Shown here: piece by piece, positions 2,650 through 50,728 of the stretch
How the letters are laid out: every line of letters starts with the position of its first letter
Position numbering within the stretch: position 1 is the stretch's first letter
NCBI GenBank assembly: GCA_963824835.1
Contig: CAWGRA010000007.1
Coordinates: 70,464-134,463, forward strand
Source of the DNA: Terriglobia bacterium
GTDB taxonomy: Bacteria > Acidobacteriota > Terriglobia > Terriglobales > Acidobacteriaceae
Length of the DNA stretch: 64,000 bases
Reading direction: 5' to 3'
Made by a program: the position numbers and the translations under genes
Notes under the pieces: model-generated
Databases searched by the model: none
Seen by the model: the letters and a program-made list of their open reading frames with translations, nothing else
Told to the model about the DNA's origin: nothing

Positions 2650-4850
2650 ATGAGAATTTCTCCCCAATCTGGCTCCGCGAATTCGTTGATCTCAAAGTCG
2701 GCGACGCTCAACTCGCCGACGATCTCACCCTTGCCGGTGTGGCGGTGGAGTCCGTCAAACAAATTGACGGGCAGACGCTCTTCGAAATGGAGATTGGCAC
2801 CAACCGTCCCGACGCCATGTGCCACTACGGCGTGGCCCGCGAATGCTCGGCCATCTATGACATTGATCTGAAGCCGATCGCGCCGAAGCTGCCGAAAGCC
2901 AAGGCAGCCGCCGCGCATTCCCTATCGAGATCCAGGACAAAGAAGGCTGCAAGCGTTACACCGCGCGCGTGATTCGCAATGTCAAGATCGGCCCTTCACC
3001 CCAGAAAATGCTTGATCGCCTGAAGATTGACGATCATGGCGGGGTCAGCAATGCCGTGGACGCCAGTAATTACACGCTGATGGAAATGGGCCATCCCACG
3101 CACGCCTTCGATCTGGACAAACTGGAAGGCGGAAAGATTATCGTCCGTCGCGCACGCGCCGGAGAAACGCTAAAGACTCTTGATGGCGTTGATCGCAAGC
3201 TTGAGGCCGAAGACCTGGTCATCGCCGATGCCTCAAAGCCCGTAGCGCTGGCGGGCATCATGGGCGGCTTTGATACCGCGATCTCGGCCTCGACAAAAAA
3301 TATTCTGATCGAATCAGCCTGGTTTGATCCCGCCACGGTGCGCAAGACGGCCCGCCGGCTGGGCATGCACACTGACGCTTCGCACATTTTCGAACGCGGC
3401 GCGGACTGGGGAGCAACGCCGCTGGCCTGCAATCGCGTGGCTGAATTGATTCTGTCCACCGCCGGCGGAGAACTGGAAGGCGATACCGTGGACGCCATTG
3501 CAGGACACGTTCCGCGCTACTCGCTGATTCTGCGCGCTCCGGAAATACTGCGGATTCTGGGCCAGGACATTCCCGAAGCGCAAGTCACACGCATGCTCAC
3601 CCGGCTGGGCTTCACCTTGAAGCTGGTCAAGGGCGAAGAAATCATGCAAGCGCATGGCAGAAGGCCTGCCGGAAGGCAGCTTCGCCGTGGTTGCTGCCAC
3701 CGTCAGAACTAATTCCGAGTAATGCCAAGGCAGGCGATTACGAGAGCGGCTCAAGAAATACGCGGCCGACCTGCTCCAGCAGCTTGGCGGACAGACCTGC
3801 TGGATTGTTGACCTGCCTACCTGGCGATTGGATATTGAACGCGAGATTGACCTGATTGAAGAGATCGCGCGCATTTACGGCTACAACAAATTTCCCAACA
3901 CGCTTCCTTCCTTCTCCGGAGGGGTGATTGAGCTGCCGGGAGCAGCCAAGGAAGCCCGCCTGCGCAATGAACTGCTCGCGCTGGGATATGACGAAGCTGT
4001 TTCCTCCACGTTCATCTCTCCGGCCGATGCGCAGGCGTTCTCCAACAGGCAAACGGTCATGCTGGCCAATCCTTTAAGCGCTGAACAGTCCGTCATGCGA
4101 AGCTCTCTGGTTCCCGGGATGCTGGGCATGATTGCCTGGAACCTGAATCGCGGAACATCGGACGTCCGGTTGTTCGAATCCGGCCACGTCTTTGAGATGG
4201 CCGGCGACAAATCAGAAGAACGAAAGATGCTCAGCGTTGGAGCAACAGGCAATGCGCTCGATCAGGACGTACACACCAAGGCGCGTCCTTATACCTTCTT
4301 CGATCTCAAGGGCGACGTTGAAACCCTGCTGGCCGGCTTTGAGCTTGGGAAGGTTCAGCTGGATGCCGGAGCTGCAAGCTACTACCACCCCGGCCGCTCA
4401 GCGCAGTTCAAAGCCGGCGGCCAGGTAATTGCCCAGTTCGGGCAGATACACCCTGACGTTGCCACGGCGCGGAAGCTCAAGCAGGAAGTCTATCTGGCAG
4501 AGATTGATCTCGACCGGCTGCTCAAATTCGAATTACGCGTTCCGCGCTATGAACCGCTGTCAAAGTTCCCTGCCGTAGGACGTGATTTCTCCTTCGTGTT
4601 TGCTGACAGTGTCACATTCGCTCAAATCTCCTCAGCCGTCCACGCGCTGAACATTAGCGGAACTGCAAAGCTTTGTCCCGGCTGAGATCTTTCGCGGCGG
4701 CGCGGTTCCGGCAGGCAGCTACTCGATTCTGTTGCGAGCGGAGTTCCAATCGCCAGACCGGACCTTGCGCGATGACGAAGTGGCGCAGTGGTCGGCGGAG
4801 ATCGTCAAGGCATGGTGCAAGCCATGGGCGGAAGTCTTCGGAGTTCGTAA
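2650..4850 (+). CDS. pheT: Phenylalanine--tRNA ligase beta subunit (needs at least 5 frame corrections)
   Basis: N-terminus WLREFVDLKVGDAQLADDLTLAGVAVESV. Fragments 2739-2972, 2969-3712 and 3828-4685, plus the tail AEIFRGGAVPAGSYSILLRAEFQSPDRTLRDDEV. Start and end are approximate. Confidence 0.85.
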
Positions 4851-5658: not shown

Positions 5659-6781
5659 ATGATCTCTCGTCGCTCGCTCTTCAAAGCCGCAGGCGTTTCC
5701 GCTGCGGTCGCCGCAACCTCCGGATTTCCTGATGGACTGCTTACCTGGGCGGAACCCTTGCGAGAAGTGCAGCCAGGCGGACCCATCCTTCTGAACAGCA
5801 ACGAGAATGCCTACGGTCCGTTTCCCAGCGTTTTGGCAATGCCGAATCCGTTTAACGACGCCAATCGCTATCCCGACTTCAGCGTGGAACAACTCACGAA
5901 GAGGCTGGCGAAGATGCACAACGTCAGCGCCGAGCAGATTATTGTCGGATGCGGATCAACGGAGGTTCTGAAGCTGTGCGTGAGACGCGTTCACCGGGCC
6001 GGGCAAGAAGCTGGTGATGGCGTCGCCTACGTTTGAAGCGGTAGGTTTTTACGCCAATGCCACCAAGGCCGAGGTGGTTAAGGTTCCGCTGGCTGCAAGT
6101 TACGCGCACCAGCTTGTAGCCATGGGCACTGAGGCGCAGAAAAATCCCGGGCTGGTTTACATCTGCAATCCCAATAATCCGACGGGAAGCGTCACGCCGC
6201 GGCGCAGCCTGGAAAACTTCATTCGCGAGCTGCCGAAGAACTGCTACGTGCTCATGGATGAGGCGTATCACGACTTTGTGACCGTCTCAGCGGACTACTC
6301 GTCATTCATCGATCATCCGGTGAACGATGATCGCGTGATCGTGGCCCGTACTTTCTCCAAGATTTTTGGCATGGCAGGCTTGCGGCTGGGTTATGCGGTG
6401 GCATCACCGGCCACGGCAAAGCTGCTTCGCACTACCAGCAGCAGGACAGCATCAACATCTTCGCGCTCCGGTGCGCGGTTACATCTCTGGATGATGCTGA
6501 TGAACACCAGTTCGCCGCCCAACGCAACAACAATGATCGCGAGACTTTCATGCATGAGGCGGCTGTGCGCAGGATCATGGCAATTCCTTCCTGGACAAAT
6601 TTTGTCATGATCAACACGCAACGTCCGGTGCAAGACCGTGATTGATCACTTCACGAAAAACAATATTCGCATTGGCCGGCCGTTCCCTCCCATGGATACC
6701 TTCGCGCGCATATCACTGGGCAAACCAGACCAGATGAAAGCATTCTGGGCAGTGTGGGACAAGCTGCCCAGGTTGACGTAA
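5659..6781 (+). CDS. HisC-like class-II PLP aminotransferase with a twin-arginine signal (about 3 frame corrections)
   Basis: MISRRSLFKAAGVSAAVAA (SRRxLFK Tat motif). LNSNENAYGP, YICNPNNPTG, TFSKIFGMAGLRLGY (PLP lysine). Confidence 0.75.
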
Positions 6782-9213: not shown

Positions 9214-9623
9214 CACTCGGCAGCTGCCGATCAGAAAGTCCAGTCAAATTTCAGTAAAGAAGAGAAAGCTGCATAGAAAAGACGCAAGACATGCGCGTTG
9301 GTACCCTTGCTATCTAACGGGCTTTTCTTTAGCATCAACACTGTCAACCGGCCTGCACAGCAGGTGCGAATGGTAACCGTTCATGAACCAACATTCAATG
9401 AACAGGGGGCCTGACTCGTATAATAACGGCTCGGTGTGCGAGGTTCCGCCAGTACGGAAATGCCTAAAGAGCCGCGGCGGGTTCCCACCATCTTAGGATG
9501 GGTTCAGAACGGCCCAGTCTCACGGCCTCGCGGGTCGGTTGCGTAAAATCCACGTTCGTTCTGCCGAAACAGATATTTGTTCCGACTCCGAAATTCCGCC
9601 TTCGCAGTATACAATCCACCTGA

Positions 9624-10616: not shown

Positions 10617-11646
10617 ATGATGACCGAATCAAGAGTAGCTTTTTTGTCGATTTTGAGGGTCTTGGCCCTGTTTTGTGCCGCAGCCCTCGTGATTGGCGAC
10701 AGGGGCGAGTGGACATGCCCAGTCACTACTTCCGTCCGGTACGGGCGTCAGTGCAAACGTAGTCCCATTGGGCAGTGCGATTTCGGCAGATGACCCGCCG
10801 ATGCCGGTATTCCGGTCCAGAACGGATGAGGTCAACGTCATCTTTACAGTGACCGACAAGCACAACAGATTTGTAAAAGACCTGAAGCAGGCGCAGTTCA
10901 CGATCCTGGACAACAACATGCCGCCGCGCCAGGTAACAAACTTTGAATCGGAAACCGATCTGCCTTTGCGCGTGGGGCTGCTGATTGATGCCAGCAATTC
11001 CATCAAAGACCGCTTTAGTTTTGAGCAGCAGGCGTCCATCGAGTTTCTGCGCCAGATTATCCGTCCGCGGACAGACAAAGCGTTCATCCTGGCCTTTGAT
11101 GAGGTGACCGATCTTACGCAGGACTTCACTTCTGACATGAACCAGTTGACCCACGGTGTGAACGTGATTCATCCCGGCGGCGGAACCGCGCTGTGGGATG
11201 CTGTATTCACATCATGCCGGGACAAGCTGATGAACGAGCGCGCTGAAGGAACCAACGGTACGGTGCGCAAGGCCATCATCCTGGTTTCTGACGGTGATGA
11301 CAACCAGAGCCGCATGACGCGCCAGGAAGCTTATGACATGGCCCAGCGTTCCGGTGTGATCATCTACGCCATCAGCACCAACCTGAGCAACATTTACGAT
11401 AACGGCGACCGCAACCTGAAGATGCTGGCGGAAGCCACCGGCGGGCGTGCATTTTTCCCGTCGAAACTTCATGATCTGACCGGTGCGTTCAAATCGATTC
11501 AGGAAGAGCTACGCAGCCAGTACTCAGTTTCGTATAAGCCTGATCAGTTTGACGGCAGCGGCAGATACCGTCCGATTCAGATTATGGCAGAGAACAAGAA
11601 ATTCCACGTACGGGCGAAAAAGGGCTACTTTGTTCCTCGCCAGTAA
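10617..11646 (+). CDS. Secreted VWA/MIDAS protein, acidobacterial VWFA-related family, paralog 1 (one frame correction near 10690)
   Basis: Signal-like VAFLSILRVLALFCAAALV. VNVIFTVTDKHNRF, LLIDASNSI (DxSxS), GGGTALWDA, VSDGDDN, ELRSQYSVSYKP...VRAKKGYFVP. Confidence 0.85.
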
Positions 11647-11664
11647 TCGAGTACATCTTCAAAG

Positions 11665-11692
11665 AAGCCCAGCCATGGTGCTGGGCTTTTTT
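11665..11692 (+). terminator. Rho-independent terminator after VWA paralog 1
   Basis: aagcccagc-catggt-gctgggctt hairpin followed by a T-run. Confidence 0.75.
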
Positions 11693-11788
11693 CTGCTCGC
11701 AAAAAATCGGATAGTCTGCCGGCTCAGTGTGGGGGAAAGGTTAAGAATTGGGGGCCAGCAGCATATAATGTTCCGGAGAACACCCATC

Positions 11789-12805
11789 ATGCCTGCCCAC
11801 AAAGCCCTGATTGTTTTAATAGCCTGTGCGTTCCTGGCGGCTGCCACGGCGCAAAGCCAGACATCGTCACCTACTCCGGCTGCCGCGCCTCAACCTGGAG
11901 CGGCGCCGGCCGCAACACCGGCATCTGGAGCAGCGGCTCCGTTGGCCACGCCGGGGCCGGACGATTCTCCCTACAAATTCGGCGTACGCACGGACCTGGT
12001 TAACGTAATTTTTACCGTCACGGACAAGCATGGCCGGTTCATCAAAGACCTGAAGCAGAGCGATATCAAGATCCTGGACAACAATCTTCCTCCCCGGCAA
12101 GTAATGAATTTTGAAGCCGAAACTGACTTGCCATTGCGCGTAGGACTTTTGATAGACGCCAGCAACTCCATTCGCGATCGTTTTCTGTTCGAGCAACAAG
12201 CGGCCACTGAGTTTCTGCAACAGATCATACGGCCCAAAAGCGATCGCGCCTTTGTGCTTGCGTTTGACGAAGTCTGGGACCTCACTCAGGATTTCACCGG
12301 CGATCTGGACAAGCTCTCCAAGGGAATACAGGTGATTCGTCCGGGCGGTGGAACGGCGTTGTGGGACGCGGTGTATTTCGCGTGTCGCGATAAGCTGATG
12401 AAGGAGCACGATGCCGGTCCGGTGCGCAAGGCGATCATCCTGGTTTCAGACGGTGATGACAACCAGAGCCGCGTGTTGAGGCAGGAAGCGCTGGATATGG
12501 CCCAGCGAGCGGAAGTGATTGTTTATACCATCAGCACGAATCTCAGCAACATTCAGGACCAGGGCGATAAGAACCTGAAGATGCTGGCGGATGCCACGGG
12601 CGGCAGGGCGTTTTTCCCTTTCAAACTCCAGGACCTGGCGGACGCGTTTCATGATATTCGGGAAGAGTTGCGCAGCCAGTATTCGGTGTCATACAAGCCT
12701 GATCAGTTCATCGCCAATGGCCAGTATCGCCCGATCCAGATCAGCATGTCAGAAAAGAAGTTTCGCGTCCGCGCGAAGAAGGGTTACTACGTTCCTAAAG
12801 AATAA
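11789..12805 (+). CDS. Secreted VWA/MIDAS protein, paralog 2 (intact; tandem duplicate of paralog 1)
   Basis: MPAHKALIVLIACAFLAAATAQ signal and a P/A-rich linker. Same motifs as paralog 1; roughly three-quarters identical by eye. Confidence 0.9.
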   Translation: MPAHKALIVLIACAFLAAATAQSQTSSPTPAAAPQPGAAPAATPASGAAAPLATPGPDDSPYKFGVRTDLVNVIFTVTDKHGRFIKDLKQSDIKILDNNLPPRQVMNFEAETDLPLRVGLLIDASNSIRDRFLFEQQAATEFLQQIIRPKSDRAFVLAFDEVWDLTQDFTGDLDKLSKGIQVIRPGGGTALWDAVYFACRDKLMKEHDAGPVRKAIILVSDGDDNQSRVLRQEALDMAQRAEVIVYTISTNLSNIQDQGDKNLKMLADATGGRAFFPFKLQDLADAFHDIREELRSQYSVSYKPDQFIANGQYRPIQISMSEKKFRVRAKKGYYVPKE

Positions 12806-12827
12806 TGTCGCTTCAGCGCTTTTGATC

Positions 12828-13010
12828 TTGCGCTTCGCGCAAACCGCTGTCATTGTTTTGCCAGCTAGAGTTCGCGTGCTCCTGTTGCGGCGGGCTCGGA
12901 ACCTTCATCGTTGCGCTTCGCGCAAACCGCCGGTCATTGCTTTTCCTGCATAGAGTTCACGTGCTCCTGTTGCAGCGGGCTCGGCGCGTGCCCGGCCTCG
13001 CCCTTACCGG
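12828..13010. repeat. Tandem duplication of a ~83-nt repeat (units at 12828-12899 and 12911-12984, plus a tail)
   Basis: ttgcgcttcgcgcaaaccgc...agagttc[ag]cgtgctcctgttgc[ga]gcgggctcgg appears twice. A third diverged copy is at 35508-35607. Confidence 0.8.
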
Positions 13011-13037
13011 ACCTTGACTTGCCATCATCTTCGAAGA

Positions 13038-13117
13038 CGGTAGGGTTCCCTCGCTCTGCTCGGGATAAAGAACAAGACCACGGTAGGGCTGTCCCTCGCT
13101 CCGCTCGGGATGGAAAG
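13038..13117. repeat. Tandem ~43-nt repeat x 2 (CGGTAGGG..TCCCTCGCTC.GCTCGGGAT)
   Basis: cggtagggttccctcgctctgctcgggataaag and cggtagggctgtccctcgctccgctcgggatggaaag. Confidence 0.8.
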
Positions 13118-13142
13118 CAGAGGCTTTTATTCACTCCGCGTT

Positions 13143-14129
13143 TTATTCACTGGGCGCGTAATAGCCTTTGCGGGCCTGGATTTTCAAGTCTTTCGCCTTG
13201 ATCTCGATCTTGCGGAAGCTGCCGTCATGTCTTGGATCAGTGGGAGAATAGCCGATACTGTACTGGCTGCGCAGTTCATTTGAAATCTGCCTGAATGCAT
13301 CACCCAGCTTATTGGGATTGTTCACGGTGATCATGCGTCCGCCGGTCTGCTCGGCCAATTGGCTCATATCATGCGGATCAGAACCATAACGAGGATCGCT
13401 GATCAACAGGACGTAGCAGATGGTGTCAGCCTTCTGGGCGGCTTCAATGGAATCCTTCAATTTTTCGCGGCTGCCCTGATCAACGCCGTCCGTCATCACG
13501 ACAATCGCCTTGCGACCAACCTGCTTGCTCAGCATTTCGTCAGAAGCCAGAAAGATGCCGTCATACAGAAGGGTGCCTTTGGGATGAGAGATGGGAATGG
13601 GGCCCTGACCGATTCCGGGTACGCCGCCACCACCGCCACTGCCCACGTTGATCTTTGCTTTATCCAGACCACGGCTGAGCTGGTGGACGTCCGAAGTAAG
13701 GTCCTGCAATAAATCCACGCTGATATCGAAGCTAAGGACAAAGGCCAGATCTTTGTCAGTGATTACGCTGCGCAGGAAATCGCTACCGACAATTTTCTCC
13801 TCCGGAAGCATGTTTTGCATGGAGCCGCTGGAGTCAATCAGGATTCCCAGCGTCAGAGGCTGATTGCTTTCCGCGGAGAAGTACTTGATGGTTTGCGGTT
13901 TGCCTTCTTCGGTAATCTGAAATGCGTCCTTGGTGAGATTCGGCACCAGAGCACCGTGCTTGTCCTTGACATTGAAGTAGACGGTGACCAGGTTAACATT
14001 CTTGCGAAATACCGGCGGTTCGCCCTGCTGCTGGGTAGGCGAGGACTGGCCCTGGCCGGACGGCTGCTGGGCAAATCCCGGCACCTGCCAAAGCAGTGCG
14101 AGAACGAAGACGAACATAAAAGTCCGCAT
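13143..14129 (-). CDS. Secreted VWA/MIDAS protein, paralog 3 (intact)
   Basis: MRTFMFVFVLALLWQVPGFAQQ signal and a Q-rich linker. VNLVTVYFNVKDKHG, LIDSSGSM, VVMTDGVDQ, ELRSQYSIGYSP...IQARKGYYAP. Confidence 0.9.
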   Translation of the reverse strand: MRTFMFVFVLALLWQVPGFAQQPSGQGQSSPTQQQGEPPVFRKNVNLVTVYFNVKDKHGALVPNLTKDAFQITEEGKPQTIKYFSAESNQPLTLGILIDSSGSMQNMLPEEKIVGSDFLRSVITDKDLAFVLSFDISVDLLQDLTSDVHQLSRGLDKAKINVGSGGGGGVPGIGQGPIPISHPKGTLLYDGIFLASDEMLSKQVGRKAIVVMTDGVDQGSREKLKDSIEAAQKADTICYVLLISDPRYGSDPHDMSQLAEQTGGRMITVNNPNKLGDAFRQISNELRSQYSIGYSPTDPRHDGSFRKIEIKAKDLKIQARKGYYAPSE

Positions 14130-14389
14130 TACGCTGCCTTTCTAAATATGGCTATTAGGGTATGGACATTCTATTGGATGCGCTCTGCTTGCGTCCTGAA
14201 TGCCTGGAAAAGCTTACAATGTTAGCTAGATTACACCGCAGCAGAATGGAAGGGCCGGTGGGCCGGATCCAGAGACGGTCTTATATGCCGGAATTGTGCA
14301 AGATAAGCTGAAAAGATCGATCAGATATCAGGGTCCAAAGCGTCGTTTTGCATCATAAGGTCGTCTTATTGAGTGGAGGCTTGGAAAAA

Positions 14390-15686
14390 ATGTCAGGATT
14401 CGGGTCTGGTACTACAAAGCTGGTGGGTGTGTTCGCCTTATTGGTGGTCTCGCTATGGGCGCAGCAACAACAGCCTCAGAATATTCCGGACGCGCCAAAG
14501 CCCAGACCCCAGGCGCAACAAAGCCAGTTTCCAGACGACGCACCGCCCGCACCCAAGAATGATCATCCTGCGGACACAGGGAATGATGGGGCAGTGCCGG
14601 TGGCGACTCCCACGCCCAGGAGAACCGCGTCCTCAGCCAGGCATTGTCAGCAGCAGGGACGATCTTTACAAGATCAACATTGCCGTAAATTTCGTGCAAA
14701 TACCGGTGACGGTCAAGGACAGGTCAGGCCATCTTGTTTCCGGACTTACTCCGAATGATTTCACCGTGCTTGAAGATGGCACTCCGCAGCAGCTCAAGTT
14801 TTTCACCAGCGATCCTTTTCCGCTGTCGGCCGCGATTGTTCTGGATACTGATCTGCCGTCCACCACCATGAAAAAGGTGAATGACAGCCTGCCGGCTTTA
14901 ATCAGCGCATTCAGTGAATTCGATGAGGTTGCGCTGTATCGTTACGGGCACACCGTGCAACTGGTTTCTAATTACTCCGGCGCGACGAACGTTTCCACGA
15001 CCACCATCGCGAAACTAAAGCGCCCAGGGCGTGAAGGCGGACCGCCGATGGTCGGCGGCGGCCCTTTTTCTCATAACGGACCTTCACTCAATGGGCATGA
15101 AGCCGACCCAAGCGTTAAGCCACAGTCAGTGCCAGCGCCGGTGCAGGAATCCTATGTTTTGAATGACGCCATTCTGCGCGCGGCCCAGGATTTGAGTCGC
15201 AGGGACAAGACGCGGCGGCGGATCATCTTTGTGGTGAGCGATGGCCGTGAGTTAGGCAGCACAGCCCACTATGACGAAGTCAAGAAACTGCTTCTGGCAC
15301 AAAACATAGCGGTGTACGCGCTGGGAGTGGATACAGCGGCAATCCCCATTTATGACCGTCTGAACCGCGTGCGCGTGCCGGGCTTTGGGTACGGCAACAT
15401 TCTGCCCAAGTACGCTTCCGATACAGCCGGCGAAGTGTTAACGGCTTTTGATCGCAACGCGGTGGAAGCGGCATACGCCAAGCTGACGGACACAGCGAGA
15501 AATCAGTACACGCTGGGTTACACCACGCGAGCCACGCAATCGAGCAGCTATCGCGCGGTGGAGGTCAAGGTACATCGGGCGGGTTTAACCGTTTTGGCCA
15601 AACAGGGATATTATCCGCTGCCGCCATCGCCTTCACCGAACCCACAGGCGCAGCAGCCGGCGCAGCCACAGTCACAACCACAATAG
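14390..15686 (+). CDS. Divergent VWA-family paralog 4 with a degenerate MIDAS and P/Q-rich termini (one frame correction near 14620)
   Basis: Signal LVGVFALLVVSLWAQQ. INIAVNFVQIPVTVKDRSGH. VLDTDLPST replaces DxSxS. ~40-aa G/P insertion. NQYTLGYTT...VLAKQGYYPLP. PQ-rich tail. Confidence 0.8.
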
Positions 15687-15860
15687 GCTTTATGCACGCT
15701 TGCATGGTCAATGCCCATTCGCCATGCATGGTTCCGCGTTGTAAACGGCCACGCACCACGTTTTGTGCCCGATGTGATATAAACAATGCTTTCAGCAGCA
15801 TAGAAGGTCTTAACCGCTCGCCCGGCAACCATGTCAACGAGCGGTGACTGAGGACAGCCC

Positions 15861-16445
15861 TTGAGTTTCATCAATTTCGCGGCCAGGGAGATCAACTGCA
15901 AGATCGTCTATTACGGCGCCGGTCTGGGCGGTAAGACGACGAACCTGCAATTCATCTTTGATAAAACAGCCGACAAGCAGAAAAGCAAGATGATCTCGCT
16001 GGCAACCGAGACGGACCGAACGCTGTTTTTTGACTTCCTGCCTCTTGATCTCGGCACTGTGCGGGGCTTTAAAACCCGCTTTCACCTCTATACCGTTCCT
16101 GGCCAGGTTTTTTATGATGCCAGCCGCAAGCTGATCCTTCGCGGCGTGGATGGCGTGGTGTTTGTGGCTGACTCGCAGGAAGAGCGCCAGGACGCCAACA
16201 TGGAAGCCCTTGATAATCTTTACGAAAACCTGAAGGAACACGGATACGAGTTCAAGAAGATTCCCTATGTTCTGCAACTGAACAAGCGCGACCTGCCCAA
16301 TGCCCTGGCCGTGGAAGAACTGACTAAAGAACTGGTGCGCAAGGGTGAACCGGTATTTGAGGCCGTCGCCTTTCAGGGACAAGGTGTTTTTGAGACCCTG
16401 AAAGAAATAGCCAGGCTGGTTCTGGTGGAGTTGAAGAAGGGATAA
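15861..16445 (+). CDS. mglA: MglA-type Ras-like small GTPase (TTG start inferred)
   Basis: [82 protein letters not shown]. Colinear with Myxococcus MglA from memory. Confidence 0.9.
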
Positions 16446-16457
16446 GGGATTGGCGGA

Positions 16458-17342
16458 ATGGCTAACTTTCTCCACGTTCTAACCCTCCTATTTCTGGTTC
16501 CTGCCGTTGTTCCCCAGGCTCAAGTTCCCGTAAGCGAGCAGAAACCTAGGCTCTCGTTCGTGTTTGGCGTGTTCGATAAAAGCGACGAACCAATGCCGGG
16601 TCTGAGAAAGGAACAGTTCAGCATCACGGACGATGGCCAGCCAGCCGAAATCATGGGGTTTGAGTCATCCACGAAAATTCCTTTGCGTCTGGGAATCCTG
16701 ATTGACAGCAGCAAGTCGAGCGGCGGATATCTGGCAAACGAGAAAAGAGCTGCGAGCTTCCTTGCAGAACACGTTGTTCACTCTGCAACCGACCATACTT
16801 TTGTAGCGGCTTTTGATGAGGTTTGGGATGTTGTTCAGGATTTCACCAATGATGCAGGCAGCCTTACCCAAAAAATCGATGGCATCAAGCCCGGAGGCGG
16901 GACAGCCGTCTGGGATGTGATGTATTACGCCTGCCGGGAAAAACTAAAAGAACAGCCGACTGATGGTCCGGTCAGGCGCGCCATCATTCTGTTTTCCGAC
17001 GGCAATGACAACATGAGCCATGTCACACACAATGAAGCCTTCAACATGGCATTGCGCGCCGGGGTCACCGTCTACATTGTTGCTCCGGAAGCACACAAAG
17101 CAGAAGACACTCTCAGGAAGATGGCAGCAAGCACTGGTGGAGAAGCGTTTTTTCCGACAAAACCTGCGGAGTGGGCCGCAGCGGTGAACCATATTGAAAG
17201 TGACCTTGAAAATCAGTACCTGGTCACCTACACACGAGCCACGCCAGCCACCAATGCAGAATTCCATAACGTGGAGATCAAGGTCAATGACCCCAAACTT
17301 AAGGTTCGATCCCCGCGAGGGTATTTCAGCCCAAAGCCTTAA
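16458..17342 (+). CDS. Secreted VWA/MIDAS protein, paralog 5 (intact; starts 12 nt after the mglA stop)
   Basis: MANFLHVLTLLFLVPAVVPQAQ signal. LIDSSKSS, GGGTAVWDV, LFSDGNDN, NQYLVTYTR...VRSPRGYFSP. Confidence 0.9.
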   Translation: MANFLHVLTLLFLVPAVVPQAQVPVSEQKPRLSFVFGVFDKSDEPMPGLRKEQFSITDDGQPAEIMGFESSTKIPLRLGILIDSSKSSGGYLANEKRAASFLAEHVVHSATDHTFVAAFDEVWDVVQDFTNDAGSLTQKIDGIKPGGGTAVWDVMYYACREKLKEQPTDGPVRRAIILFSDGNDNMSHVTHNEAFNMALRAGVTVYIVAPEAHKAEDTLRKMAASTGGEAFFPTKPAEWAAAVNHIESDLENQYLVTYTRATPATNAEFHNVEIKVNDPKLKVRSPRGYFSPKP

Positions 17343-17382
17343 CCTGGCGGTATTTCGGGCTCATTATCACTTTTCGCAATTG

Positions 17383-17410
17383 AAAAAGGCCGCTCGCAAG
17401 CGGCCTTTTT
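17383..17410. terminator. Bidirectional rho-independent terminator between convergent genes
   Basis: aaaaa-ggccgct-cgca-agcggcc-ttttt. Confidence 0.85.
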
Positions 17411-17428
17411 ACTGGCAGTTACAGGTCA

Positions 17429-18595
17429 CTATTTGTGGTCGATGGAGGCTGATCCCCCCAGGTCACGGCCCTTTGACATTCCTCGGCTGGCACGGGCTGT
17501 CATGGTATTGCCGCTGGAGTCTCCATATCGTTCAAGAAGCACCGGCACCAATGCACCTTCGGCTTCCTTGGTAAAGGTCAAACGGCTGTCCTTCATGTCA
17601 ATGCGGATGAAGTCGCCCAGCTTGATCTGGCCGGTGGCAACAAGGTTTGCCAAGGGAAAGACAATGTTCTTCTCAATGGACCGTTTCAAATGCCGCGCGC
17701 CATACTTGGGATCAGTACCCTCGCTCAGCAGGAACTTCTTGACGATGCCGGTGCAACTGAAGACAAACTGCTGGTTTCCGGTGGCTTGAAGAATCCTTTG
17801 CTGCACCATGCCTAATTCTATTTCCAGGATGTGCTCAAGATGTTCCGGCTTGAGGGTCTTGAAGACCACCATCTTATCAATGCGGTTCATGAATTCAGGC
17901 GAGAATTTGCGTCGCGCCGCTTCTTGAGCAGTGCGGGTGATCTTCTCATCCAGCCGGGTATCCACCACTTTCTCACTGTTCTTTGACTTGGCAAACCCGA
18001 GCCCGCCGGTGAGTATGTCACTCATTTCGCCGGCGCCGAGGTTCGAAGTCATTACGATGAGACATTGTGAGAGGTCCACGCGGCGGTTATCGCCAAGCGT
18101 GAGCGTGGCTTTATCCAGAATGCCCAGCAGCAACTGCCAGAGAGCGTCACTGGCCTTTTCGATCTCGTCGAAAAGCAGCAGCGTGAGCTTGCGCTTTTCC
18201 GTATGCCATTGGTTGAGGGCTTCCTGCGTCAGCAGAGGGTGCGTCTCGCGATGGCCAAGATAGCCGGGCGGCGAACCGATCAACTTGGCGATTTCATGGC
18301 TATGCTGAAATTCGGCACAATCAATCTTGATGACGGCCCGCGGATCGCCGAACAGCGCCTCCGCCATCGCTTCCACCACCCGGGTCTTGCCGGAGCCGGT
18401 GGGGCCCAGGAACAATAGATTGCCAAGGGGCCGCCCTGGAGCATTCAGGGATGCCAGGAACATCTGGTAAATCTCCACTACTTTATCAATGGCCGCATCC
18501 TGGCCAACGATCTTCCGCCGGAGGGCGGATTCGAAATCCAGCGCATCAGAGCTGCGCCGGCTTGGATCAAGTGCTGTATTAAGACCGGTCCTCAT
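17429..18595 (-). CDS. Stand-alone AAA+ ATPase corresponding to ClpA/ClpB nucleotide-binding domain 2 plus the D2-small domain
   Basis: 388 aa, intact. IVGQDAAIDKV, FLGPTGSGKT (Walker A), LLLFDEIEKA (Walker B), VMTSNLG, FSPEFMNRID, YGARHLKRSIE. No N-domain or NBD1. Confidence 0.85.
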   Translation of the reverse strand: MRTGLNTALDPSRRSSDALDFESALRRKIVGQDAAIDKVVEIYQMFLASLNAPGRPLGNLLFLGPTGSGKTRVVEAMAEALFGDPRAVIKIDCAEFQHSHEIAKLIGSPPGYLGHRETHPLLTQEALNQWHTEKRKLTLLLFDEIEKASDALWQLLLGILDKATLTLGDNRRVDLSQCLIVMTSNLGAGEMSDILTGGLGFAKSKNSEKVVDTRLDEKITRTAQEAARRKFSPEFMNRIDKMVVFKTLKPEHLEHILEIELGMVQQRILQATGNQQFVFSCTGIVKKFLLSEGTDPKYGARHLKRSIEKNIVFPLANLVATGQIKLGDFIRIDMKDSRLTFTKEAEGALVPVLLERYGDSSGNTMTARASRGMSKGRDLGGSASIDHK

Positions 18596-18823
18596 AATTG
18601 CCTCGCCTCTTCCGCAAGAGGACTCCTCCTTAGAAGAAGCCTAGAAGCTGAGATGGAGATGAGAGGTGCAGAGTTGTAATAACTGATTTGTCAACACCCT
18701 TGCTCTCAGCATCAGAATGTTAGATGCGGCAATGATGACAAAAGGCCAAGCACCAGCAGGCATTTTGATCAGAGTAGCTGGCGTCATGCTAAGATGCGTT
18801 GCAGACCCCGGAAAAGAGTTGGC

Positions 18824-20433
18824 ATGGCACCCAAGAAATTAGGAATTTTCTCCTCCGCAACCATCATCGTTGCGGGTTTGGCAGTTGCGGTTATCTTCTT
18901 CGCACGCCACCCGCAGTTGATGTCTCAGACAAAGGTTTCAGCAGCCCAAAGTACAACCGGTTCCACGCAGAACGGAACATCCGCAGCCCAGCCAGGAAAC
19001 GCAACTTCAGCGGCATCAGCAAATTCCGCCACAGCGGGCGCCGTACCAGCCCAGCCACTGCCGCCCGGAACGATTACCCATGAAGCCAAGGCACTCACCA
19101 CCGCCACGTTTCTGGCACGCCAGCATCTGACCGAGTCAAAATACATGACGGTGGCCGATTATGTGGCTGCGATCGCCGCAGGCCAACAACGGCAAAACGA
19201 GTTTCAAAAAGGGTGAGACGGTCTTCATCCCGGGGATTGAGCCGCAGCCCATTGTGGAGAAGAGCCGGCCCTATCCGAAAGAGACCGAGCTGCGCGCCAT
19301 TTACCTGACTGGCGGAACCGCCGGCAGCGCCAAGGGAATGCAGATTGTCCAGCACTGGCATGAAGCGGGTGGCAATGCCGTGGTATTTGATATCAAGGAC
19401 AGTGACGGCAGCATCAACGTTCCTTTTGAACATCCTCTGGCGCGCAAGGTCACTCACCACGCGATCACGAACCTGCCCAAGTACGTGCGTTACCTGCACT
19501 CACTCGATATGCACGTCATCGCGCGACAGGCGCTGTTCCGGGATGACAATATTGCCCAGAACCACAGCGCACTGGCCGTCCAGAGCCGCAGCATGCACAA
19601 GCCATGGCTGGAGAACGGCAAGCTGGTGTGGTCTGACTCATCCAACAAAGAGGTGCAGGACTACAACATCGCCCTGGCAAAGTACGTAGCAGCATCCGGA
19701 GTGGATGAAATTCAGTTTGATTATGTCCGCTTCCCTGCTGAAGGCAATCAGGCGGACGCGCAGTTCGATTTTCAGAAAGATCCCAAACTGCACCGGGATG
19801 ACGTGATCGCAAATTTCCTGGAGCGCGCCTATGACCCAGTTGCACCCGATGGGCGTACTGGTCTCACTGGACGTTTTTGGCGTGATGGCGTGGCAGCGCC
19901 AGGTTGACATGGCCCATACCGGCCAGGACATCGTGAAGATGGCGAAGCACTCTGACGTGATCTCGCCCATGATCTATCCTTCGCACTTCTTCGGAATGGA
20001 CGGCTATGACCACCCGGGTGACGCGCCGGAACACTTCATCGGCGTTTCCATGGACCGGTTTATGAAGGTCACTGCGGGATCCGGCGTGGTTCTTCGTCCC
20101 TGGCTGCAGGCCTTCCACTGGAGAACCAAGACTTACTCTCCGGAATACATCCTGAAACAGGTGGGAACCTCCAGCCAGCATGGCGGAATCGGCTTCCTGT
20201 TCTGGAATGCCGCCAACGACTATTCCAAACCGTTCGCCGCGATGCCGGTGATCATGAAGAACCCGCAAGCAATATCTGCACACACCAGCACCAGCATACG
20301 GTGTGGCGCAGACAACCGTACCGCCACATCCGGCGCAGCCGCTGCGAGATCCGGCGAAAGGCCCTACAGAGCTGCAACCACGGGCGGCCGCGCAGGTAAA
20401 AATCGCCATATCCGGCTGACATTTGTAATGTGA
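18824..20433 (+). CDS. Membrane-anchored putative glycoside hydrolase (DUF4015/GHL-type TIM barrel), about 2 frame corrections; 3' end uncertain
   Basis: N-terminal TM IFSSATIIVAGLAVAVIFF. RAIYLTGGTAGS...GNAVVFDIKDSDG, IARQALFRD, VDEIQFDYVRFP, LSLDVFG, ISPMIYPSHF, GFLFWNAANDY. Confidence 0.6.
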
Positions 20434-20632
20434 CGAGACTGCATATTCGACCCATATTTCAAATGTTGGCCGGAAAATTTCTGTCAGATATAATGTGCTG
20501 TTTGCCCACGGAATCATATCTAATATAAGTGGTATGTCTTAGCCTCGTTCAGCTGCGGGCATGGCATATCTCTGGATTAGAGCAACTGAATCCGAAGCAG
20601 CAAGTTCGGCATATCTGGCAGAAGGAGCCCCC

Positions 20633-21589
20633 ATGGCGATTCAAGCAACCGAGAAGATCTGGCACAACGGAAAATTCATTCCCTGGAAAGACGCCCAGAT
20701 CCATGTGATGTCCCACGTGGTGAACTACGGTTCGTCAGTATTTGAAGGAATCCGTTGCTATGACCAGCCGGAAGGCCCGGCGATTTTCCGGTTGCGTGAG
20801 CACATGCAGAGGCTGCTGGATTCCGCCAAGATTTATCGCATTGAGACCGATTACACTCTGGACCAGCTTTGCGAAGCGGCCTGTGACCTGGTGGCGACCA
20901 ACGGTGTCTGGCCCTGCTACCTGCGTCCGATCATCATGCGCGGCTACGGTGAAGCCGGCGTAAACCCGTTCAACTCGCCCACAGACGTCTACATGACCAA
21001 CTATCCCTGGGGCAAATACCTGGGCAAAGGCGACGTGAGCGAAGGCGTGGAAGCGTGCGTATCGTCATGGTCGCGAATTGCGCCGAATACCATGCCGGCC
21101 ATGTCAAAGGCAGGCGCCAATTACATGAATTCACAGCTCATCAAGATGGAAGCCATTGTGAATGGCTACGTGGAAGGCATTGCCCTGGACGTGAACGGCT
21201 TTGTCAGCGAGGCCTCAGGCGCGAATATCTTCGTGGTCCGCAAAGGCAAGCTGATGACGCCGCCGCTGGGCAATTCAGTACTGCCGGGCATCACCCGCGA
21301 CTCTCTGCTCACGCTGGCTGAAGATCTGGGAATTCCGGTGGCAGAGCAGATAATCCCGCGCGAGATGCTCTATATCGCCGACGAAGTTTTCTTCTGCGGC
21401 ACTGCCTCTGAAATAACTCCCATCAAGTCCATCGACAAGATCAGCGTCAACGGTGGAAAGACCGGGCCGGTAACTCTTGCCCTGCAGCATGAGTTCTTCA
21501 ACATTGTTTATGGCAAAGAAAAGGACCGCCACAACTGGTTCAGCCGCGTCCCGGTAAAAGACCGGCACAAGCAGCCGGTTGGCGTTTAA
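20633..21589 (+). CDS. ilvE: Branched-chain amino acid aminotransferase
   Basis: GAAGGAG RBS, then MAIQATEKIWHNGKFIPWKDAQIHVMSHVVNYGSSVFEGIRCY...GANYMNSQL...GITRDS...EVFFCGTASEITPI. Confidence 0.9.
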   Translation: MAIQATEKIWHNGKFIPWKDAQIHVMSHVVNYGSSVFEGIRCYDQPEGPAIFRLREHMQRLLDSAKIYRIETDYTLDQLCEAACDLVATNGVWPCYLRPIIMRGYGEAGVNPFNSPTDVYMTNYPWGKYLGKGDVSEGVEACVSSWSRIAPNTMPAMSKAGANYMNSQLIKMEAIVNGYVEGIALDVNGFVSEASGANIFVVRKGKLMTPPLGNSVLPGITRDSLLTLAEDLGIPVAEQIIPREMLYIADEVFFCGTASEITPIKSIDKISVNGGKTGPVTLALQHEFFNIVYGKEKDRHNWFSRVPVKDRHKQPVGV

Positions 21590-21607
21590 AGAATTCGGGG
21601 TCAATGG

Positions 21608-21636
21608 AAGGCGCGCTTCGGCGCGCCTTTTCTTTT
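21608..21636 (+). terminator. Rho-independent terminator after ilvE
   Basis: aaggcgcgc-ttcg-gcgcgcctt followed by ttcttttg. Confidence 0.8.
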
Positions 21637-21725
21637 GCCAGTCTCGTTTTGTATTCCTGGGCTTTCCGCCCTCACAAACATGCTCTGCCTTCTCAGCATC
21701 AAATAGAGGTGATCCGGAGGCGAGC

Positions 21726-22646
21726 ATGAAGGTTGGGATTGTGGGAGCTGGAGCGGTTGGAGCCGCATGTCTTACATCACTGATCACGCGAGGCGTGTCA
21801 TGTGAAGTGGTAATGGTGAATCGCAATCGCAAGCGGGCGGACGGCCTGATCACAGACGTCCAATATGGAGCGTCACTGCAACCGCACGTGAGGTTGCGGG
21901 CAGGCGATTACGCTGATCTGAAAGGCGCAGCGCTGGTGATGATTACTGCCGGAGTGAATGAAAAAGAAGGCGGCGCCACAGACCGCAGCGATCCTAAAGG
22001 CCGCCTGAAATTGCTTCAGACGAATGCAAAGGCTTACGGGGAGATTGTTCCGCAGATTACTCAGGCGGCCCCCAAATCAGTGATTCTGGTGGTGACCGAC
22101 CCTCCGGACCCACTGGCCGATCTCACTCTGGGCCTGGGACATAAAACAGTTTTGAGTACCGGCACATATCTTGATTCACTGCGCTTCCGTTTTCATCTGG
22201 CCAGGCGATTTCAAGTGAATCCGGAAAGCGTGGAAGCCATGGTGGTGGGTGAACATGGCACGTCACAGGTGTTCCTGTGGTCTTCGGCGCGCATTGGAGG
22301 CCGGCCGATCTCAGCGATCGCAAAAGAGAACGGCATGAGCTTCAATCAGTTCAAAACAGAGATTGAGAAGGAAGTGCGCTACGCGAACATTACGATCATC
22401 GAGGGCACGGGAGCCAGCGTGTACGGCATCGGGATGGTTTGTGCACGCATCACAGAGATAATTCTGCGCGACGAGCGCACGGTGATCCCGATTGGCTCAT
22501 TCAACAAAGATTTCGGCGCAACTCTTTCCCTCCCCAGCGTTCTGGGCCGTGACGGCGTAATCAGGATTTTGATGCCGGAGATGTCTGATGAAGAACGCGG
22601 GCTGCTGGAGAAGAGCGCAAAGACGATCAGAGAAGCGGCGGCGTAG
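21726..22646 (+). CDS. L-lactate/malate dehydrogenase family oxidoreductase
   Basis: MKVGIVGAGAVGAA, ITAGV, VVTDPPD, VVGEHGTSQV. The substrate loop (NEKEGGATDRSDPKGRLKLL) is longer than in typical LDH. Confidence 0.8.
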   Translation: MKVGIVGAGAVGAACLTSLITRGVSCEVVMVNRNRKRADGLITDVQYGASLQPHVRLRAGDYADLKGAALVMITAGVNEKEGGATDRSDPKGRLKLLQTNAKAYGEIVPQITQAAPKSVILVVTDPPDPLADLTLGLGHKTVLSTGTYLDSLRFRFHLARRFQVNPESVEAMVVGEHGTSQVFLWSSARIGGRPISAIAKENGMSFNQFKTEIEKEVRYANITIIEGTGASVYGIGMVCARITEIILRDERTVIPIGSFNKDFGATLSLPSVLGRDGVIRILMPEMSDEERGLLEKSAKTIREAAA

Positions 22647-24766: not shown

Positions 24767-25894
24767 ATGCATATTGATGATTTGCTTCGCATCGCGATGG
24801 AGCGCAAGTCTTCTGACTTGCACTTAAAGGTCGGCAACTACCCGCATGTCCGTGTGGACGGCGAACTCGTGCCACTGACCGACCAGCCAAGAATTTCCGC
24901 CGAAGACATGTTGAACATGGCTTTCAGCATGATGTCTAACCGGCAAAAGCAGAAATTCAAGGAATCAGCCGAACTTGATATGGCCTATGGCGTGGCCGGA
25001 CTGGGACGCTTCCGTGTGAACGTGTTCCAGCAGCGCGGCAACGTTGGCCTGGTGCTTCGCGTGATTCCCACCAAGATTCGCGCCCTGGAAGAGCTGTACC
25101 TGCCCAAGGTGATTGAGCACATCTGCGAAGAAGCCCGCGGACTGTGCCTGGTCACGGGCGTGACCGGTTCAGGTAAGTCAACCACGCTGGCCGCCATGCT
25201 GGACAGGATCAATTCGAGCCGTCCGGAACACATCATGACGATCGAAGATCCGATCGAATTTCTGCATCGCGATAAAAAAGGTTTCGTCAATCAGCGCGAA
25301 GTGGAAGTGGATACGCCCTCATTCGCGTCGGCGCTGCGCGCCAGTCTGCGTCAGGATCCTGACGTAATTCTGGTGGGCGAAATGCGCGATCTGGAGACGA
25401 TCTCCACCGCGCTGCACGCCGCTGAAACCGGTCACCTGGTGTTCTCCACGTTGCACACCTTGGACGCCGTGGAAACCATCAACCGTATCATCGCCGTGTT
25501 TCCACCGCCGGAACAGAAACAGGTCCGTATGCAGTTGGGCGCAACGCTGCGAGCCGTTATCAGTCAACGACTGGTAAAACGCGCCGACGGCGCCGGCCGC
25601 GTACCCGCTTGCGAAGTGCTTATCTCTACGGCATTCGTTCGCGAGTGCATCATGGTCCCGGAAAAGACACGACTGATTCATGAAGCCATTGCCGCCGGTA
25701 CTTCCCAATACGGCATGCAGACGTTCGACCAGTCACTCTACGATCTTTATTCGCAGGGGCTGGTCAGCTATGAAACAGCGCTTGAAAACGCCAGCAATCC
25801 AGACGACTTCAAACTCAAGGTCCAGGGCATACACTCCACGGCCGATGCGGCCCGCGAGCAGATGGAACAGGCTGGATTCAGCACGGGAAGATAA
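24767..25894 (+). CDS. pilT: Type IV pilus retraction ATPase PilT
   Basis: Intact, 375 aa. GLCLVTGVTGSGKSTT, ILVGEMRDLETI, AAETGHLVFSTLHT, and the AIRNLIRE-equivalent region. Confidence 0.9.
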   Translation: MHIDDLLRIAMERKSSDLHLKVGNYPHVRVDGELVPLTDQPRISAEDMLNMAFSMMSNRQKQKFKESAELDMAYGVAGLGRFRVNVFQQRGNVGLVLRVIPTKIRALEELYLPKVIEHICEEARGLCLVTGVTGSGKSTTLAAMLDRINSSRPEHIMTIEDPIEFLHRDKKGFVNQREVEVDTPSFASALRASLRQDPDVILVGEMRDLETISTALHAAETGHLVFSTLHTLDAVETINRIIAVFPPPEQKQVRMQLGATLRAVISQRLVKRADGAGRVPACEVLISTAFVRECIMVPEKTRLIHEAIAAGTSQYGMQTFDQSLYDLYSQGLVSYETALENASNPDDFKLKVQGIHSTADAAREQMEQAGFSTGR

Positions 25895-47943: not shown

Positions 47944-48025
47944 CCCCTTGCGGGGCTCAATTCTTTCTTACACTGACCCAGCGCTTACGCGCTGGGCTAA
48001 CTTCTCAACGCGCCTACGGCGCTGG
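47944..48025 (+). repeat. REP-like elements: hairpin gcccc-ttgc-ggggc, then cccagcgc-ttac-gcgctggg plus CTAAC and the tail ..cgcgcctacggcgctgg
   Basis: An uninterrupted copy of the element type that is split by IS481 copy B. Confidence 0.75.
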
Positions 48026-49701: not shown

Positions 49702-50728
49702 TGTGACATTTCAACAGGTTGTCCATTCGAGCAAAACCAGAGAAGCTGATTGTGTTGAGCAGTCAGTTTCATCCTGGAGGCCCGAATGGACATTCATAAG
49801 AATGCCCGACTTACCCTGATTCGTCGAGGGCAGTTGGTCGAGCAGGTCCTGTTTCATAAGCTATCGTTACAGGCCGCGGCCACTGTCTTCCAAGTTTGCC
49901 CTCGAACCGCAGCCAAGTGGACGCGCCGTTATCAACTCGAAGGAGCGCCTGGTTTACAGGATCGTTCCTCGCGTCCTCATCGCTCACCACGTCGCACCGG
50001 AGAAGCGCTGGCAGAGCGCGTGGAACAGCTGCGGCGACAGCGCTTCTCCGGCCTTCACATTGCCAAGCTCACCGGTCTGAGCCGGGCCACCGTCAGTCGC
50101 ATTCTCCGCCGCCTTGGCTTGAACCGCATGCGCGATCTGGAGCCGGCCATTCCCATCCAGCGTTATGAACATGCCGCTCCTGGCGATCTGCTCCACCTCG
50201 ATATCAAGCAGCTGGGCCGCTTTTCCGAAGTCAAGGTTCGTCCCGACGGCCGCCGTCGCGGCAAACATCATTGCCGCTGGGAGTACCTTCACGTCGCCAT
50301 CGATGACCATTCCCGCATCGCCTTTGCTCAGATCCTGCCCACCTTCACCGCCGCGGATGCGGTAGCCTTTCTCTTTGCTGCCGTGGATTACTACGCCACT
50401 CTCGGTATCCCCATTCGCCGCCTGCTTACCGATAACGGCCATTGTTATCGCTCCCATGCTTTCCGCGCCGCTGTCTTGCAGCTCGGATTGCGTCATCACT
50501 TCACTCGTCCTTACACTCCCCGCACCAACGGTAAGGCCGAACGACTCATCCAGACTGCTCTCCGCGAGTGGATCTACGCCTGCTCCTATCTCAACTCCCA
50601 GGAGCGTAATGCCCGGCTTTTTCCCTGGCTGCACCACTACAACTGGCATCGCCCTCATGGTAGTCTCAAAGGCGCTCCACCCATCAGCCGCGCTGGCCTT
50701 TATCAGGACAACCTCTTGAGACTCCACA
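49702..50728 (+). mobile_element. IS481-family insertion sequence, copy B, complete (1027 bp) with a 6-bp target duplication GCTAAC
   Basis: IRs: TGTGACATTTCAACAGGTTGTCC (left) versus the reverse complement of the right end, TGTGGAGTCTCAAGAGGTTGTCC. GCTAAC at 49696-49701 and 50729-50734. Confidence 0.9.

Follow-up and report, generated by a model that had tools for sequence, protein, structure and literature searches.

A conserved cluster of TIGR03436 genes with an mglA lacking adjacent mglB in Terriglobales

We analysed a 64,000-nucleotide (nt) stretch of DNA from a Terriglobia bacterium (contig CAWGRA010000007.1, positions 70,464 to 134,463; this whole stretch is called the window below), which contains five paralogous genes for proteins of the von Willebrand factor type A (VWA) domain family TIGR03436, named here P1 to P5, and a gene for the small GTPase MglA. 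Among bacteria, MglA serves as the model of a Ras-like polarity switch, and nearly all that is known of it was learned where MglB is present too; Terriglobales are abundant in soil. The features of the cluster are listed below (MIDAS: metal ion-dependent adhesion site).

10617–11646, + strand: P1, predicted secreted VWA protein of TIGR03436, MIDAS intact (LLIDASNS); signal peptide 10617–10691, mature part 10693–11646
11789–12805, + strand: P2, predicted secreted VWA protein of TIGR03436, MIDAS intact, tandem paralog of P1
13143–14129, − strand: P3, predicted secreted VWA protein of TIGR03436, divergent from P4, canonical MIDAS
14390–15686 (family-match open reading frame 14373–15686), + strand: P4, divergent MIDAS-less TIGR03436 protein
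15773–15783, + strand: extended −10 promoter element of mglA (TGTGATATAAA), 78 nt 5' of the TTG start, found by comparative alignment
15813–15845, + strand: predicted GC-rich hairpin in the mglA 5' leader
15850–15854, + strand: Shine–Dalgarno sequence of mglA (GAGGA), just 3' of the leader hairpin
15861–16445, + strand: mglA, Group 1 MglA small GTPase, 194 amino acids (aa), TTG start, no adjacent mglB
16458–17342, + strand: P5, predicted secreted VWA protein of TIGR03436, MIDAS intact (LIDSSKS), 12 nt 3' of mglA
17383–17410, both strands: bidirectional intrinsic terminator (AAAAAGGCCGCTCGCAAGCGGCCTTTTT), common to mglA(–P5) and the convergent AAA gene

Conservation of the gene order around mglA

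The neighbourhood was sampled in two directions. The mglA-outward sample comprises 66 species-level loci from GTDB genomes, 62 of which have sufficient sequence upstream of mglA; the P4-outward sample is independent and comprises 65 assessable metagenome contigs, obtained by scanning with an alignment of P4 only. Comparison loci and contigs are labelled L001 and so on, and L001 is the 98.5%-identical reference for P3–P4–mglA. Starting from mglA, an ortholog of P4 is found 5' of the gene and on the same strand in 52 of the 62 loci (within 400 nt in 47, with a median spacer of 190 nt), and the divergent P3 ortholog lies beyond P4 in 51 of 62. Starting from P4, mglA is located directly 3' in 56 of the 65 contigs and mglB in none. 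The adjacency of mglA to TIGR03436 genes, described in the initial annotation for the window, is a recurrent one: P4 and mglA are neighbours in about 85% of cases in both sampling directions, across P4 divergence down to about 42% identity.

As a control for the general decay of synteny, we counted the neighbours which are kept within 10 kb of mglA in all 66 loci. P4 is retained in 53 loci and P3 in 51. The AAA and RluD genes are retained in 27 each, the DUF4015 gene in 21, the class IV aminotransferase gene in 15, ZapA in 10 and PilT in 9, and the genes for PadR, YbjQ, PNPOx, Ldh and NDH2 in 0–2 each. Because the retention of P4 and P3 far exceeds that of all other neighbours (at most 41% of loci), the P3/P4/mglA triad is preferentially conserved, with a linkage that is not obligate.

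The TIGR03436 paralogs and MglA

All five VWA genes belong to TIGR03436 (acidobact_VWFA in NCBIfam), as initially assigned. Over the whole model of 324 positions they score 230 (P1), 233 (P2), 242 (P3), 143 (P4) and 181 bits (P5), above the curated cutoff of 81.25 bits, and the E-values range from 1e-41 to 1e-72. The remaining 57 kb of the window contain no further TIGR03436-like open reading frame. Pairwise identity is about 70% between P1 and P2, about 40% between P5 and either of these, about 30–35% between P3 and P1, P2 or P5, and 20–26% between P4 and each of the other four. Looking at the metal site, P1, P2, P3 and P5 have the full MIDAS, i.e. D(A/S)S(N/G/K)S, the loop-2 threonine in GT(A/L) and the loop-3 aspartate in (S/T)DG; in P3 it is kept in 51 of 51 orthologs (DxSxS, GT, TDG). 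Since the MIDAS is intact, these four proteins are predicted to be competent for ligand binding. P4 and its 53 orthologs lack both MIDAS serines and the loop-2 threonine: the equivalent site is DTDLPS in the window and D(T/L)GM(P/A)D in most orthologs, the loop-2 region is HVLNDA, and the VSDGDDN-type motif is also missing. A motif (L/I/V)PD(A/G)P, 4–8 residues past the predicted cleavage site, is found in 52 of the 53 P4 orthologs (LPDAP, residues 35–39, in P4 ortholog P0001) and in none of the 51 P3 orthologs. P4 also has an insert, rich in Gly and Pro and disordered, and its tail is rich in Pro and Gln.

The sole Pfam VWA match of P4 is sub-threshold; a VWA fold is nonetheless predicted. 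In the AlphaFold2 models of P4 (predicted local distance difference test, pLDDT, above 90 in the core) and P5 (pLDDT 88, predicted template modelling score 0.85), the VWA domain is inserted in a beta-sandwich of four N-terminal and three C-terminal strands, and the conserved 'ELRSQYS...KGYY' tail corresponds to the C-terminal sandwich strands. The single architecture described earlier for all five paralogs is upheld by this shared VWA-in-sandwich fold of P4 and P5; it does not extend to the DxSxS, GT threonine and VSDGDDN motifs, which P4 lacks. Based on Foldseek searches against the PDB, the models match ITIH1, ArnB/ArnAB, Sec23/24, integrin beta headpieces, BatB and isolated I/A domains, as well as the VWA protein 4fx5 of Catenulispora acidiphila; by model comparison, P4 and P5 fall into the general class of VWA domains inserted in a hybrid-like sandwich, with no specific relative. 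The TIGR03436 family is mentioned in no paper of the literature searched, and an exact-sequence database look-up of P5 and of the 100%-identical cluster representative P0241 matched no record.

At the N-terminus of all five paralogs, a short segment with charge precedes a hydrophobic core of about 14–15 residues and an AQ/AxA-type site. Signal peptides were judged by a heuristic (hydrophobicity and cleavage-site pattern) and not by SignalP; the maximum 12-residue Kyte–Doolittle mean is 2.5–3.1 and the uncharged cores comprise 8–18 aa. By this heuristic a signal-peptide-like N-terminus is present in 50 of the 53 P4 orthologs and 42 of the 51 P3 orthologs. No lipobox cysteine was seen on inspection of the N-termini of the VWA proteins. 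Export of these proteins, which had been proposed from the signal peptides, is likely and would proceed via Sec.

The gene coordinates given in the initial annotation are essentially right, with the difference that 10617–11646 and 14390–15686 are not single open reading frames. Compared with L001, in which the orthologs are intact (P1 342 aa, P4 431 aa), one extra base at about 10692 puts the signal peptide of P1 out of frame with the mature part, and one at about 14632 does the same for the signal-peptide part of P4. These frameshifts are probably assembly errors, because other genes of the window are split too: the pheT-, hisC- and DUF4015-like genes (2969–4685, 5659–6610 and 18794–20433) are each divided into several open reading frames, a pattern which suggests an indel-prone long-read assembly. 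Genuine pseudogenisation of P1 and P4 is not favoured over assembly error; if the shifts were real, both proteins would lack export signals.

The 194-aa protein ending 12 nt before P5 is indeed an MglA with intact motifs. It is colinear with Myxococcus xanthus MglA (6hjh) over residues 1–194 (E 7.9e-91, about 73% identity) and matches Thermus thermophilus MglA with an E-value of 1.4e-76. It keeps G19, G21, K25, T26, R53 (the intrinsic arginine finger), T54, Q82 and NKxD (NKRD), with a GxGxxGKT P-loop and a switch II of TVPGQ, in which Thr takes the place of Ras Asp57. The catalytic and nucleotide-binding motifs do not vary among the 54 orphan and 15 MglB-coupled sequences aligned. The best Pfam match is Arf. 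On these sequence features the protein is classed as a bona fide Group 1 MglA (Wuichet and Sogaard-Andersen 2014) and is predicted to be hydrolysis-competent.

The search for MglB used a hidden Markov model built from nine acidobacterial MglBs and run with --max at E<=10. The training genes encode proteins of about 160 aa, lie directly 5' of mglA in Blastocatellia, Pyrinomonadaceae and Chloracidobacterium, and belong to PF03259 (JGI name Roadblock/LC7/MglB family). The model matches 14 of 14 loci of this type (L070–L083). No match with an E-value under 0.5 comes from the window or from L001–L069, and in 66 Terriglobia-type species none lies within 10 kb of mglA, in line with the earlier failure to find an MglB gene in the window. 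Some MglB homologs in sequence collections carry the source label 'Terriglobia bacterium'. In the sister acidobacterial classes a canonical mglB–mglA pair is present and mglB occupies exactly the P4 slot (14/14 loci). The gene 5' of mglB in Blastocatellia was considered as an equivalent of P3 and rejected; it is CofD/YvcK-like and lies beside glmU and glmS. In one mglB–mglA locus outside Terriglobales (L070, a region of 11.6 kb) a P1-type TIGR03436 gene is located 1.7 kb 3' of mglA on the opposite strand. The neighbourhood of Acid345_0708 in Candidatus Koribacter versatilis has been listed as 'MglA>' and that of Chloracidobacterium as 'MglB>MglA>' (PMC4316618 supplement), and Koribacter has been cited as having RomR and lacking MglB (PMC3983030). 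The orphan status of mglA is real at the locus level and, as it has already been published for Ca. Koribacter versatilis, is not new.

Transcription units and surrounding DNA

A consensus scan of 12700–17600 for promoters and terminators was uninformative (4 promoter-like sites vs 2.4 expected), and the mglA promoter was recognised by comparative alignment of orthologous P4–mglA spacers, which are 107–391 nt long. The extended −10 element, TGTG(A/G)TATAAA, is present in 48 of 49 aligned spacers, 67–130 nt 5' of the conserved TTG start. About 20 nt 5' of it, most loci (L010–L064) have a direct repeat GT(A/C)AC(C)-N3-4-GTAACCTGC (GTAACC-N3-4-GTAACCTGC), which looks like a putative response-regulator-type operator and has 34 occurrences in the P4–mglA spacer against only two at other places in about 1 Mb of locus sequence. 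The subclade of the window (L004–L008; window 15700–15860) has a different sequence there, with no evident box. A hairpin is predicted, without a formal covariation test, at the same position in nearly all orthologous mglA leaders, with differing sequences; it lies just 5' of the Shine–Dalgarno sequence GAGGAAAG, is often followed by a T-run, and resembles an attenuator or a terminator. The same scan of 12700–17600 gave no convincing terminator 3' of P4, so read-through from P4 into mglA may take place and is compatible with the sequence.

The mglA and P5 genes are separated by 12–13 nt and followed by a single terminator in the window and in six further contigs (L164–L169; 6/6 contexts examined). 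The P5 orthologs of these contigs, which come from several samples, are 67–85% identical, and one of the contigs (3.25 Mb) has the complete order RluD–P1–P2–P3(−)–P4–mglA–P5–AAA(−). Beyond these orthologs, identity to P5 drops to 58% for the next homolog and to at most 45% thereafter. The bidirectional terminator is conserved in L001–L004 and in L164–L169; in the relatives lacking P5 it lies about 45 nt 3' of mglA. A strain-specific insertion of P5 was considered, as L001–L004 lack the gene, and rejected because its orthologs occupy the identical site in the six contigs above. Judged from these sequences, P5 is a clade-restricted paralog found only behind mglA and variably lost, and mglA–P5 behaves as a true bicistron with predicted co-transcription. 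The operon proposed in the initial annotation can be retained for mglA–P5, with its short spacer and one terminator, and not for P4–mglA, where the spacer contains a promoter cassette of mglA.

The genes 3' of the cluster that are referred to in the text are the following.

17429–18595, − strand: stand-alone ClpB-D2-like AAA+ protein (AAA_2 and ClpB_D2-small), 388 aa, convergent with mglA/P5
18794–20433, + strand: DUF4015 gene, divergent from the AAA gene
24767–25894: pilT (T2SSE)

The ClpB-NBD2-like AAA+ gene and the DUF4015 gene are often kept together near mglA. The closeness of pilT, which had been regarded as suggestive, does not carry weight: metabolic genes lie between pilT and the cluster, and the gene is within 10 kb of mglA in only the nine of 66 loci counted above. 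The annotated neighbours are RluD, AAA, DUF4015, aminotransferase, Ldh, NDH2, PilT and RecX, and the remainder of the window outside the cluster is metabolic or mobile DNA.

Some comparison loci have a different arrangement. In L136 the ClpB-D2-like AAA gene comes immediately after P4, which gives the impression of a clean excision of mglA. The Terriglobia mglA genes that occur without P3/P4 in L029, L037, L053, L063 and L065 start with GTG and are preceded by another sequence, which is GTGTTATATAC in L029, L037 and L053 and differs again in L063 and L065. A conserved gene of about 370–550 aa is convergent 3' of mglA in L029, L037, L053 and L063 (truncated at the contig end in L063).

The window has a G+C content of about 55%. 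Metagenome contigs of ENA sample ERZ25039574 are 94–98% identical to it, and its nearest species-level relatives are metagenome-assembled genomes labelled Terriglobia, Terriglobales or Candidatus Angelobacter. The identity to L001 is 98.5% over 13080–16444 (P3–P4–mglA), 94.5% over 17376–21767 and 95–97% upstream, a pattern suggestive of mosaicism through recombination, the breakpoint being where P5 is present or absent. An Rfam scan of the VWA/mglA cluster gave no known RNA family; elsewhere in the window a 6S RNA is located at 9347–9540 (+, 58 bits), just 5' of rluD, and an Acido-Lenti-1 small RNA at 47977–48023 (+, 47.9 bits). Two IS481-family transposase genes are present, a shorter one at the window start (106–717, −) and one at 48391–49596 (−), the latter beside a DDE_Tnp_1/DUF772 transposase gene (49786–50730, +).

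Interpretation and comparison with known systems

We tentatively read the locus as a lineage-specific cluster of exported, integrin-beta-like TIGR03436 proteins together with an MglB-less mglA, a gene set deployed jointly for surface behaviour. In the conserved Terriglobales core, a MIDAS-competent P3 and a MIDAS-less P4 would form a divergent pair, after which comes mglA with its own promoter; one subclade, which includes the window, would add P1 and P2 upstream and P5 co-transcribed with mglA. In the cytoplasm, MglA would cycle between GTP and GDP as a polarity switch and, by analogy with Myxococcus, Thermus and Bdellovibrio, would probably act on type IV pili, with its guanine nucleotide exchange factor and GTPase-activating protein (GAP) encoded elsewhere. 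Beyond the cytoplasmic membrane, the VWA proteins would act in binding or adhesion in a metal-dependent way; P4, which would not bind metal, may serve as a partner or scaffold and might pair with P3. MglA and the VWA proteins would be coupled by linked inheritance and co-expression with no physical contact; a cytoplasmic MglA and exported VWA proteins cannot touch directly. The annotated genes of the conserved block include no membrane-spanning connector, pilus or Agl/Glt genes and pilT is not syntenic, and for this reason the evidence supports a conserved, partly co-transcribed neighbourhood and not a trans-envelope machine; an indirect functional link is plausible.

Several observations weigh against functional coupling and speak for the genes being neutral neighbours, a serious rival of somewhat lower probability. 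Here the ancestor of Terriglobales would already have had the P3/P4 pair when mglA arrived next to it, mglB would have been lost or relocated, and the functions would be unrelated; the promoter-bearing junctions would resist insertion, and P5 would be a paralog inserted in a convenient transcribed slot. The P3/P4 pair occurs without mglA in 9 of the 65 contigs (L130, L131, L134, L136, L138, L139, L141, L145, L154), and mglA without P3/P4 in 10 of 62 species. The four closest relatives (L001–L004) do without P5, which is therefore dispensable. The promoter cassette, repeat box and leader included, still precedes mglA where P4 is 0.7–5.7 kb away or absent, and this sequence pattern indicates that mglA has its own regulated promoter and that the P4–mglA spacer is not an operon junction. 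A shared regulon could have shown itself by the repeat box in the P3–P4 spacer; the box was looked for and is never there, so nothing shows shared regulation of mglA with P3/P4 and the putative operator appears specific to mglA. The variable flanks are gene 3' ends, which tolerate insertions, and the conserved junctions hold promoters, so the synteny could be partly neutral. MglA and the VWA proteins also belong to different compartments, and the neighbourhoods of Group 1 MglA are reported to vary widely (PMC4316618). What neutrality accounts for less well is an adjacency of about 85% in both directions, when every other neighbour is at 41% or below, and the presence of a second, independent TIGR03436 gene (P5) 12–13 nt behind mglA and nowhere else.

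A closer connection, in which MglA switches a trans-envelope adhesion or surface-motility complex with one or more VWA proteins as outer components, was put forward in the initial annotation and is in our view unlikely. It is consistent with the conserved linkage, the mglA–P5 bicistron and the intact MIDAS of P1, P2, P3 and P5, and its precedents are real: the MglA-GTP-dependent Agl–Glt focal adhesions with CglB, and the type IV pili stimulated by MglA–SgmX and tipped by PilY1 (PMC9946355, PMC11135422, PMC9109919). Against it, the conserved block has no gene for a membrane-spanning connector, for Agl/Glt-like proteins or for pilus assembly, the VWA proteins have no lipobox, P4, the one most tightly linked to mglA, has no MIDAS, pilT is not syntenic, and the gliding marker gene gltF is reported in only 12 genomes (PMC3441718). 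Agl/Glt-like genes and a CglB-type lipoprotein were not seen among the annotated neighbours (CglB homology itself was not tested), and the analogy with gliding is reduced to a resemblance. It is similarly improbable that the loss of MglB accompanied the recruitment of P4 (and of P5 in the subclade) as obligate envelope partners of MglA, which a membrane connector would join to a periplasmic or surface P3–P4(–P5) adhesion complex; this would be an MglA output module not recognised before. In the extreme version of such a partnership, P4 would act directly on MglA as Sec23, a GAP, does on its Arf-like GTPase Sar1. A cytoplasmic regulator of the Sec23/24 or ArnAB kind, with P4 or P5 replacing MglB, has very little probability. 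It would fit the position of P4 in the exact mglB slot, the Arf match of MglA and the Foldseek matches to ArnAB (8s05), an ArnB paralog (5a8j) and Sec23/24 (1m2v, 8bsh), with E-values of 3e-9 to 2e-7. These matches, however, are generic for VWA domains (query-normalised TM-score 0.3–0.35, root-mean-square deviation about 12 Å, long alignments), the extracellular ITIH1 and integrins score equally well, and P4 has none of the zinc-finger, helical and gelsolin domains known from Sec23/24; the P4 orthologs have hydrophobic cores of about 15 aa with signal-peptidase-type sites and so should be exported.

No link between MglA and VWA proteins in Acidobacteria was found in the literature searched. 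As far as this literature shows, new findings are the P3/P4/mglA block, seen across the order and with P4 in the place of mglB, the division into clades with and without a competent MIDAS, the mglA–P5 bicistron and the conserved mglA promoter/operator. The MglA and TIGR03436 assignments themselves are ordinary. Joint deployment, the reading we prefer, and neutral neighbourhood are of interest in different ways: a functional link would add a new output to the MglA switch, and without one the locus would be a clear example of conserved gene order that misleads. In both cases Terriglobales keep a predicted hydrolysis-competent MglA without an adjacent GAP, and TIGR03436, a large family of no known function, gains a first concrete genomic lead, with P3, P4 and P5 as named clades. 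The conserved mglA promoter/operator could identify an upstream regulator. The lead is relevant to research on MglA and on acidobacterial surface biology.

Comparing the VWA proteins with known systems, P4 is a distinct orthologous clade within TIGR03436 (MIDAS-less, with LPDAP and the Gly/Pro insert) that is tied to mglA. The AlphaFold2 models share the topology of the integrin beta headpiece, ITIH1 and ArnB, and P1, P2, P3 and P5 share the MIDAS residues; the identity is about 10–15%, long alignments superpose poorly (root-mean-square deviation 9–13 Å), and the window proteins differ in being bacterial, signal-peptide-bearing and single-module, with 290–430 aa. CglB and PilY1 are extracytoplasmic VWA/MIDAS proteins of MglA-governed systems (PMC9946355, PMC9109919); compared without sequence alignment, the proteins of the window differ from them by the absence of a lipobox and of Glt/Agl or minor-pilin neighbours, and are much smaller than PilY1. 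For BatA/BatB there are weak NCBIfam BatA matches (E 6e-7 to 4e-3; 29 vs the cutoff of 380 bits) and the Foldseek match to BatB (3ibs), but the locus has no MoxR, DUF58, TPR or Bat partners, and its proteins have signal peptides and not transmembrane anchors. Compared with Sec23/24–Sar1, the sandwich and VWA core of P4 are alike, and the zinc-finger, helical and gelsolin domains are those P4 does not have.

Concerning MglA, a close published case is that of Ca. Koribacter versatilis, in which Acid345_0708 has the same 'MglA>' neighbourhood and no MglB. In Bdellovibrio bacteriovorus, where MglA likewise lacks an MglB, the protein has S21 and is regarded as GTP-locked (PMC3983030), whereas the MglA of the window retains G21, for which reason a GAP is still expected. 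With the MglA/MglB module of M. xanthus and T. thermophilus the window MglA shares the G21 P-loop, R53, Q82, TVPGQ and NKRD, and the locus has a secreted VWA-like gene in the mglB slot instead.

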